DNA of 24,036 bases from an uncultured Christensenella sp. (GTDB lineage Bacteria > Bacillota > Clostridia > Christensenellales > DTU072): the NCBI GenBank assembly GCA_964626765.1, contig CAZVHD010000001.1, forward strand, positions 1 to 24,036. Reading direction: 5' to 3'. Each line of letters opens with the position of its first letter. Positions within the stretch are counted from its first letter, which is position 1. The position numbers and the translations under genes are program-made. The notes beneath the pieces were generated by a model that saw only the letters and a program-made list of their open reading frames with translations, made no database searches and was not told the DNA's origin. Shown here one piece after another: positions 23,494 through 24,036 of this stretch.

Positions 23494-23643
23494 ATAGAGT
23501 GCATAAACTAAAAACTTACACTTGAAGCTTAGCCGTGCCGTAAGGGAAAAGCAAGTCCTTGATAATACTGACAGCTTAGCTTAAGAATAGGCAGAACTAA
23601 GCCAAATGTACTGTGGTCTAAACTACACCATTAAATCCACCTC

Positions 23644-23771
23644 GCTGTTGTAGCTCAGATGAAGCGACGCGTTAAGCAAATGTGCCTGTGCGCACATTTG
23701 TAGCCAAAGCTCGTGAGGAGCGATAGGAAGCAAAGCGACCGTACGACGAGGGAAGCGCGCGTCCTTGGTAA
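23644..23771 (+). pseudogene. tRNA-Thr 5' half interrupted by a D-loop insertion
   Basis: GCTGTTGTAGCTCAG (23644-23658) and GCGCGTCCTTGGTAA (23757-23771) match the tRNA gene exactly. 98 nt sit where TAGGTAGA should be. No 3' half follows. Confidence 0.85.
23659..23756 (+). other. 98-nt GC-rich structured insertion of unknown family (REP/MITE-like or RNA module)
   Basis: 53/98 G+C (54%) in an AT-rich window. 9-bp hairpin CAAATGTGC (23677-23685) / GCACATTTG (23692-23700), a GCTC/GAGC hairpin (23709-23721), and near-direct repeats GAAGCGACGCGT / GAAGCGCGCGT at its ends. Confidence 0.6.
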
Positions 23772-23857
23772 TACTGACAGCTTAGGCAAATATGGCTTAA
23801 AACCTGCCAAAATGTACTGTGGTCTAAACCACATAAAAACCATCATAATCAACACTC

Positions 23858-23895
23858 GCTGTTGTAGCTCAGTAGGTAGAGCGCGTCCTTGGTAA
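23858..23895 (+). pseudogene. Exact 38-nt 5' half of tRNA-Thr(GGT), ending at the last base of the anticodon loop
   Basis: Identical to 23982-24019. Followed by TACTG instead of the anticodon-stem 3' strand GGACG. Confidence 0.9.
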
Positions 23896-23981
23896 TACTG
23901 ACAGCTTAGGCAAATATGGCTCAAAACTAGCCAAAATGTACTGTGGTCTAAACCACATAAAAACCATCAAAATCAGCACTC

Positions 23982-24036
23982 GCTGTTGTAGCTCAGTAGG
24001 TAGAGCGCGTCCTTGGTAAGGACGAGGTCACGGGTT
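23982..24036 (+). tRNA. trnT: tRNA-Thr(GGT), truncated by the window end
   Basis: Acceptor 5' strand GCTGTTG, D-stem GCTC/GAGC, anticodon stem CGTCC/GGACG with loop TTGGTAA (GGT at 24015-24017), variable loop AGGTC and T-stem start ACGGG-TT. The 3' end is not visible. Confidence 0.93.

Follow-up and report, generated by a model that had tools for sequence, protein, structure and literature searches.

Stacked tRNA-Thr 5' Halves in Uncultured Christensenellales Point to Serial Integration of tRNA-Replacing Temperate Elements

Why should a threonine tRNA gene be preceded by several copies of its own first half, each broken off at the same base? The question is raised by a 24,036-nt stretch of DNA from an uncultured Christensenella sp., referred to here as the window, which is a whole contig, 1 of 272, in a 77%-complete metagenome-assembled genome (MAG). 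Near its right end, a promoter is followed by 5' halves of tRNA-Thr alternating with linkers, and then by the beginning of tRNA-Thr(GGT) (Table 1). The halves all break after the last base of the anticodon loop, and TACTGACAGCTTAG stands directly 3' of the break in three exact copies. Tandem Repeats Finder reported a period of 124 with 2.1 copies, 96% matches, and a score of 491, and the repeated pattern of half plus linker is not due to chance. The order of halves, linkers, and tRNA given by the first-pass annotation is present in the sequence, but the tRNA that it described as intact is truncated by the contig end. Indeed, ARAGORN called no tRNA on the window because the contig stops at position 24036, 55 nt into the gene. 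Unit 1, previously taken for a plain degenerate half, aligns better to positions 23725 to 23771, that is, to the tail of the insert in unit 2 plus the end of that half, than it does to a plain half. No further copies of the array units were found elsewhere in the genome to which the window belongs.

Table 1. Coordinates of the array and its surroundings in the window, with the right junctions located in related genomes
Feature	Position	Strand	Remarks
Host flanking gene, 342 aa	22297..23325	-	Counterpart in G001 is a SIS-domain protein
Host promoter of tRNA-Thr gene	23465..23493	+	TTGACA-17-TATAAT, 12/12 consensus match, sigma-70 type
Unit 1 remnant, 5'-truncated orphan half ending TTGATAA	23515..23565	+	Tail of D-loop insert probably retained
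Linker 1, 78 nt, decayed	23566..23643	+	63-67% identity to linkers 2 and 3; putative left end of the oldest element
Unit 2 orphan 5' half (tRNA-Thr positions 1-38), interrupted in the D-loop	23644..23771	+	~98-nt insert at 23659-23756
Linker 2, 86 nt, putative left end (start of P' arm) of an integrated element	23772..23857	+	Abuts the anticodon loop
Unit 3 orphan 5' half, 38 nt	23858..23895	+	38/38 identical to the tRNA start at 23982
Linker 3, 86 nt	23896..23981	+	94% identity to linker 2; putative left end of the youngest element
tRNA-Thr(GGT), first 55 nt	23982..24036	+	Rfam tRNA model, 42.3 bits, 3'-truncated; contig end
Right junctions in relatives	G001:C2 (57 kb downstream), G001:C8, G022:C50, G061:C7 (13.4 kb downstream), G061:C6, G062:C114, G198:C100

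The same layout is shared by eight genomes (G001, G002, G011, G022, G029, G059, G061, and G062), all of them recorded as Christensenellales, Clostridia, or Bacillota, and by four JGI metagenome contigs. The common order is promoter, one or two units of half plus linker, a complete tRNA-Thr(GGT), a terminator, and a conserved downstream block of ~300 bp that is built of repeated GGCATAAAA motifs. The exact junction pattern matched 33 records among 185,579 species genomes, and BLAST detected the linker in only 8 of them; the remaining records are chance matches, as expected with 17 specified bases. The linker is thus not confined to the window, and the recurrence with variable copy number envisaged by the first-pass annotation was found. 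A complete tRNA-Thr(GGT) follows the linker on its 3' side in 12 of the 12 loci where the assembly continues, and no linker without a full tRNA-Thr and downstream block after it was found among the 185,579 species genomes and the JGI metagenomes. A member of the same genus, G003, has the same upstream gene and promoter and an uninterrupted tRNA-Thr with its own terminator, and neither linker nor downstream block; judging by this arrangement, its locus is an unoccupied site. The perfect promoter lies 5' of the first half in the relatives and 5' of the uninterrupted tRNA in G003. The 342-aa flanking gene, with a homologue in G003, is likewise kept upstream of the promoter in occupied and unoccupied relatives alike, and the order of SIS gene, ~270-aa gene (an aldo-keto reductase in G001), and ~2835-aa LRR gene is common to the window and G001.

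The recurrence also bears on whether the third unit of the window could be an assembly artifact, which we consider very unlikely. The contig ends in a repeat, and the Logan contigs of the best public run, fragmentary and at a depth of only 3-5x, cover positions 23300 to 23887, with a variant linker after the insert-bearing half, and leave 23900 to 23975 at zero coverage. Independent support from reads, the check to which the first-pass annotation had pointed, is thus weak and does not confirm the third unit. However, linkers 2 and 3 differ at 5 of their 86 positions, and two-unit arrays occur in three other assemblies made independently, some of them on long contigs (117 kb and 690 kb), both of which argue against an artifact of the assembler.

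A broken 5' half raises the matter of where its 3' half has gone, and orphan 3' halves were sought by a whole-genome pattern search for tRNA-Thr 3' parts. In five genomes (G001, G022, G061, G062, and G198), a conserved right arm of ~200 bp is fused at TTGGTAA to such an orphan 3' half. Three GGCATAAAA repeats lie in the right arm, the last bases of which are ...TTTGGTAA. In G001, the first 3' half lies on the same contig as the array, and its own terminator and downstream block then follow; the second lies on another contig (C8) and is followed by a host-type terminator. Of the two 3' halves in G061, one is 13.4 kb downstream, and the other is on a different contig. ARAGORN called no tRNA at the orphan 3' halves, which would be the attR sites. 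The pattern search found no orphan 3' half within 40 kb downstream of the array in G001 and G059, no mate for the G059 orphan 5' half anywhere in its genome, and no other intact tRNA-Thr(GGT) 3' part in G001, G011, G029, and G059. The last of these results is a hint that a lysogen may depend on the phage tRNA for its viability.

The halves on the two sides fit each other. When orphan 5' and 3' halves were joined in the predicted nested order, 7 of 7 acceptor-stem and 5 of 5 anticodon-stem pairs formed in all five cases, which cover the four genomes with a matching array also assembled, and swapped pairs of halves gave only 8 to 10 of the 12 stem pairs. Stem-pair counts were used here because ARAGORN was too tolerant on joined halves to distinguish right from wrong pairs. 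In G001, the anticodon-stem strand of half 2 is an unusual CTACC, matched by GGTAG in its mate; joined, the two are identical at 76 of 76 positions to the intact tRNA found after a linker on metagenome contig L087. On the reverse strand of that contig (positions 1 to 70), the module of linker, tRNA, and downstream block is preceded by non-tRNA DNA (...GTGGTTAA and then GACTGAC), the opposite strand of which resembles a fragment of an IS3-type transposase. The L087 module may represent integration at a secondary site.

The 3' part of the linkers (the last ~30 nt) comes in two subtypes, and in 18 of 18 linkers the subtype matches the tRNA allele on the right (GCTGTTG or GCTGCTA type) and not the half on the left. 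This linkage indicates that linker, complete tRNA, terminator, and downstream block travel together. Neither a unit of 124 bp nor an element contained in the linker is compatible with this. The first-pass annotation had offered, as one option, a minimal nonautonomous element of ~124 bp that inserts repeatedly at the anticodon loop in trans, an idea that draws on the constant unit length and on units starting exactly past the loop. It is now hardly credible, as the linker type goes with the complete tRNA and the downstream block to its right, the right-hand junction partners are 13 to 57 kb away, and the species genomes and JGI metagenomes searched yielded neither a linker lacking a complete tRNA-Thr after it nor a solo unit at any other target. 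A model that places the element within the linker and always assigns the 3' half to the host was also rejected, because several orphan halves (in G001, G022, and G059) cannot be paired with the resident 3' strand and because of the same subtype linkage to the right-hand tRNA.

The attP reconstructed from these junctions would share only TTGGTAA(G) with the tRNA, a core of 7 to 10 bp (up to 10 bp in G022), with GGCATAAAA repeats on both of its arms. Correspondingly, attL retains tRNA nucleotides 1 to 38 only, and attR retains the 3' half only. A classical element that restores its target tRNA was considered and discarded, as the right arm beside the core has no tRNA similarity and what lies past the core in attP is the linker, not a 3' half.

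Taken together, the right arms, the nested and stem-matched 3' halves, and a prophage insert in G001 lead us to read the units as left junctions of a tRNA-splitting element, and we consider it highly probable that each unit of 5' half plus linker is the attL junction of one family of temperate phages or integrative elements. In this model, the tyrosine integrase of the element would recombine the 7- to 10-bp core with the anticodon loop, TTGGTAA(G), of the resident tRNA-Thr(GGT). Because attP shares only the core with the tRNA, the resident gene would be split, its 5' half being left behind the host promoter and its 3' half being moved to the far end of the element. The element would supply a complete, co-oriented tRNA-Thr(GGT), located 86 nt in from its left end and trailed by a terminator and the ~300-bp GGCATAAAA block, and the predicted attP junction reads right arm - TTGGTAAG - linker - tRNA. 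At the level of sequence, the split tRNA is demonstrably replaced by the one that the element carries, and a later element of the same family uses the tRNA of its predecessor as attB. Each reintegration adds one half and one linker upstream and one 3' half downstream, in nested order. The GGCATAAAA motifs are presumably arm-type integrase sites. Recombination between tandem elements, or decay, could remove 3' halves and leave the upstream scars in place, which would be inert and would decay with age.

Several earlier suppositions can be revisited in this light. A tyrosine-integrase crossover in the anticodon loop is well supported, given the exact junctions and a Phage_integrase-domain protein in the G001 element, and it is indeed the 5' part of the tRNA, not the 3' part, that piles up, as stacked halves upstream of the gene. 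In the relatives, the junctions lie exactly at the anticodon loop and the element encodes an integrase; catalysis is a prediction from sequence. What had been described as an 86-nt cargo is only the beginning of a large element, which measures 13.4 kb or 57 kb where both ends are assembled; its complete tRNA-Thr comes directly after these 86 nt, and all the remainder is located downstream of that tRNA. The reading of the window itself rests on its relatives because nothing past position 24036 is assembled in its genome, and none of the 272 contigs of the MAG holds a downstream block, right arm, 3' half, or integrase. By analogy with those relatives, the tRNA-Thr(GGT) at 23982 would be an element-borne copy.

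The 57-kb insert in G001 encodes terminase large subunit, portal, major head, tape measure, tail, tail fiber, and holin proteins, together with a primase, helicases, several methyltransferases, and a 461-aa tyrosine integrase with a Phage_integrase domain, and is a complete-looking siphovirus prophage. An ABC sugar transporter is carried as cargo. By gene content, this insert is that of a temperate phage; the 13.4-kb insert of G061 (L065:857-14211), the ends of which are intact and matched, contains neither an integrase nor terminase, portal, major head, tape measure, tail, or holin genes among the ten open reading frames (ORFs) scanned against Pfam. The family members are not all intact phages, and the G061 insert may be a decayed or nonautonomous member, perhaps mobilizable in trans. 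It also encodes a 2076-aa protein that was outside the Pfam scan, a LytTR two-component system, and methyltransferases.

C-terminal fragments of the G001 integrase, with about 87 to 100% protein identity, adjoin element remnants in other genomes and, where mapped, are found just past the downstream block. An exact-protein lookup returned only the G001 contig and one short contig with a 100% identical stretch downstream of the integrase, and no phage relative of the protein was found above about 29% identity. Searching phage GenBank records by blastn with the array, tRNA, and downstream block gave tRNA matches only, and scans of IMG/VR for the junction, linker core, and right arm gave only two junction-pattern matches, both on contigs without linker core or tRNA, which we have taken as chance. 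No free phage genome with the predicted attP was found in phage GenBank records or IMG/VR.

Other genes of these elements merit a mention. An Erm-family 23S rRNA methyltransferase-like gene adjoins the integrase in G001 (L021:14054-14926) and G059 (L023:14135-15007); it scores 213.5 bits against the NCBIfam Erm model (cutoff, 212), its nearest relative is Erm(42), and the 2.2-kb segment that contains it is 97.7% identical between these genomes of two different families. The right end of the G001 prophage (L058:2369-15415) carries defense cargo, comprising an AAA_13 ATPase, SbcC/SbcD-like proteins, a C5 cytosine methylase, and a Hachiman-like pair of HamA and a DEAD-box helicase. Closer to the left end, the linker motif TACTGTGGTCTAA is present at window positions 23609-23621, 23815-23827, and 23939-23951, and an inverted copy (TTAGACCACAGTA) lies ~85 nt past the tRNA terminator, in the downstream block of L002 to L007. 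Nearly all of the element copies examined have TTAGACCACAGTA, the exception being a diverged copy in G062:C114. A 13-nt inverted repeat thus brackets the tRNA gene inside the attP arm and could be a candidate protein-binding pair that loops out the tRNA.

Serial integration is not the only way in which an array could grow. After a single integration, further copies of half plus linker could have arisen on the spot, with the 38-bp repeats mediating unequal crossing-over or replication slippage, and if that were so, the copy number in the window would not be a count of integrations. Linkers 2 and 3 are indeed each other's closest relatives, with shared lineage-specific letters, and half 3 is a perfect copy of the tRNA start, which suits duplication in place no less than reintegration; the D-loop insert is apparently present in both units 1 and 2. 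We nevertheless consider local multiplication after a single integration unlikely, since in G001 and on contig L085 neighboring halves are different alleles and neighboring linkers are different subtypes, and since every half in G001 and G061 has its own 3' mate downstream. These differences and separate mates demonstrate stacking by serial integration for the family, so that duplication could only be an additional process in the window. There, given the similarity of linkers 2 and 3 and the insert in units 1 and 2, local duplication may have contributed to the count of three.

A second family may use the same gene. On L086 (positions 1035 to 1130), a linker of another kind, 58 nt long, comes after the first orphan half, and the break falls after the anticodon stem and not after the loop. 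This junction points to another element family with the same strategy of tRNA replacement.

The remaining question is whether the halves do anything. The promoter at 23465 to 23493 is the only consensus promoter before the tRNA and stands upstream of the whole array; no promoter-like sites were found in linkers 2 and 3 or in both G061 linkers, and no plus-strand terminators were found between promoter and tRNA. Given the single perfect promoter and the absence of an intervening terminator, the array is probably transcribed as a leader, as the first-pass annotation had suggested. Transcription of the replacement tRNA would then start at the host promoter and pass through orphan half and linker, the leader presumably being removed by RNase P.

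Transcription invites the proposal that the array is a functional leader, supplying mini-tRNAs, anticodon-nuclease decoys, or regulators of the tRNA-Thr supply. The invariant linker start TGACAGC is able to pair with GCTGTTG, and Rfam gives a weak tRNA match of 17.9 bits at 23858-23906, which would suit such a role together with the position of the array between promoter and tRNA. We examined a mini-tRNA pairing of TGACAGC with the acceptor strand and rejected it, because the partner strand varies (GCTGACG, GCTGATG, GCTGCTA, and GCTGTTA, at half positions 5 to 7) and TGACAGC does not covary with it. This lack of compensation, the decay of old units such as unit 1, their tolerance of an insertion of ~98 nt, and the fact that membership of the linker in a mobile element fully accounts for its sequence conservation make a functional leader highly improbable. 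An Rfam search of the window and six related loci, a check proposed earlier, matched the tRNA model only, leaving linker, insert, and downstream block without a family. The options of att-site decoys or tRNA-half RNAs are left without support by the same decay and noncovarying pairing.

The orphan halves look inert. It is very doubtful that they act as decoys for anticodon nucleases or tRNA-binding factors, or that the array length tunes how much of the only tRNA-Thr(GGT) is supplied; such a role would involve transcripts made at a strong promoter, in which the GGT anticodon loop is exposed and the T-arm is missing, and it would mean that serial lysogeny alters host physiology beyond the replacement of a gene.

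The insert in unit 2 belongs to a dispersed repeat, of which genomes of the genus have up to 9 copies each, also present in L071, L072, L073, L074, L079, and L080 (alignment A1). Conserved flanks, GCGACGCGTTAAGC ... GTAGCCAAAGCTCGTGAG, surround a hairpin, and compensatory changes are seen at 11 of its 18 pairs; the insert has no Rfam match, and its depth in the best run is 18-28x, compared with 3-5x for its flanks. Members of this family occupy the D-loop of the promoter-proximal orphan half in four lineages, namely, the window, L004 (G002), L065:462-572 (G061), and the metagenome contig L084. Either the insert targets the D-arm hairpin or it is tolerated only by dead halves. Related pieces are found past the host-type tRNA-Thr terminator in G003 (L008:1612-1766), G001:C8 (L059, reverse strand, ~1540-1720), and G061:C6 (L066, reverse strand, ~800-880). 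There, an inverted piece of variable loop and T-stem is followed by an insert-family repeat, the family membership of the one in G001:C8 being uncertain, and in G003 and G001:C8 only, a third piece is a direct fragment from the T-arm to the 3' end. These pieces are probably the scar of a different, classical element that targets the 3' end.

Stacked halves and nested mates constitute a natural, readable record of successive lysogenizations, in the course of which phage-borne alleles, nearly identical in several families, have taken the place of a presumably essential tRNA gene. If so, the left end of the prophage should become undeletable after the remainder decays. For annotation, arrays of 5' halves before a tRNA gene can serve as markers for tRNA-replacing elements.

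Comparison with known systems places these elements more precisely. In classical tRNA-targeting integrases (P22, HP1-type sites, and Williams' sublocation classes), attP brings along the 3' part of the tRNA; integration leaves a duplicate 3' fragment at the far end, and the chimeric gene stays functional. The Christensenellales elements resemble them in the crossover in the 7-nt anticodon loop, the tyrosine recombinase, and the putative arm-type repeats that flank the core. They differ in that their attP shares the loop only, neither half keeps its partner, and the gene supplied is a complete one. With tandem arrays of genomic islands at one tRNA gene they share the reuse of attB and the recording of junction fragments. 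However, in those arrays a single gene stays unchanged and 3' fragments accumulate downstream of it, whereas here the gene is replaced each time and the 5' fragments are stacked between promoter and gene.

The closest parallel is tRNA-dependent lysogeny, described for the mycobacteriophages Fionnbharth (subcluster K4) and cluster L (Guerrero-Bustamante & Hatfull, mBio 2024, PMC10865867), and the statement of the first-pass annotation that no named system has this layout is superseded, as tRNA-dependent lysogeny follows the same logic. In the mycobacteriophages, the mechanism has been established by experiment: the common core is short (~10 bp), the host tRNA is not rebuilt, and its loss is made good by a phage-encoded tRNA of the same isotype (PMC10865867). 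Tandem integration into an incoming tRNA is suspected there for plasmids (PMC10865867). As far as that paper describes it by citation, the Lj965 prophage of Lactobacillus johnsonii reportedly does not rebuild its target tRNA and encodes the cognate tRNA (PMC10865867), which would make it, on the strength of the citation, another Firmicutes prophage with an unrestored tRNA and a cognate gene of its own. Common to the mycobacteriophages and the elements described here are a tyrosine integrase, an attB in a host tRNA gene, a short core, and a supplied tRNA; the host is different, Christensenellales (Bacillota), as is the tRNA, Thr(GGT) instead of Lys(TTT). The tRNA of Fionnbharth is located elsewhere in the phage and has its own strong promoter (PMC10865867), whereas the Thr tRNA is part of the attP arm, at a distance of 86 nt from the crossover, and is co-oriented with the host gene. 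Since the element tRNA has no recognizable promoter of its own, the host promoter would be taken over, a more compact design in which the replacement tRNA is part of the attachment site. Unlike the mycobacteriophages, the Christensenellales form natural stacks with up to three orphan halves, and nested 3' mates document the serial events. We read these stacks as tRNA-dependent lysogeny repeated into the tRNA of the previous element, which would extend a mechanism experimentally shown only in actinobacteriophages to uncultured Clostridia of the order Christensenellales.
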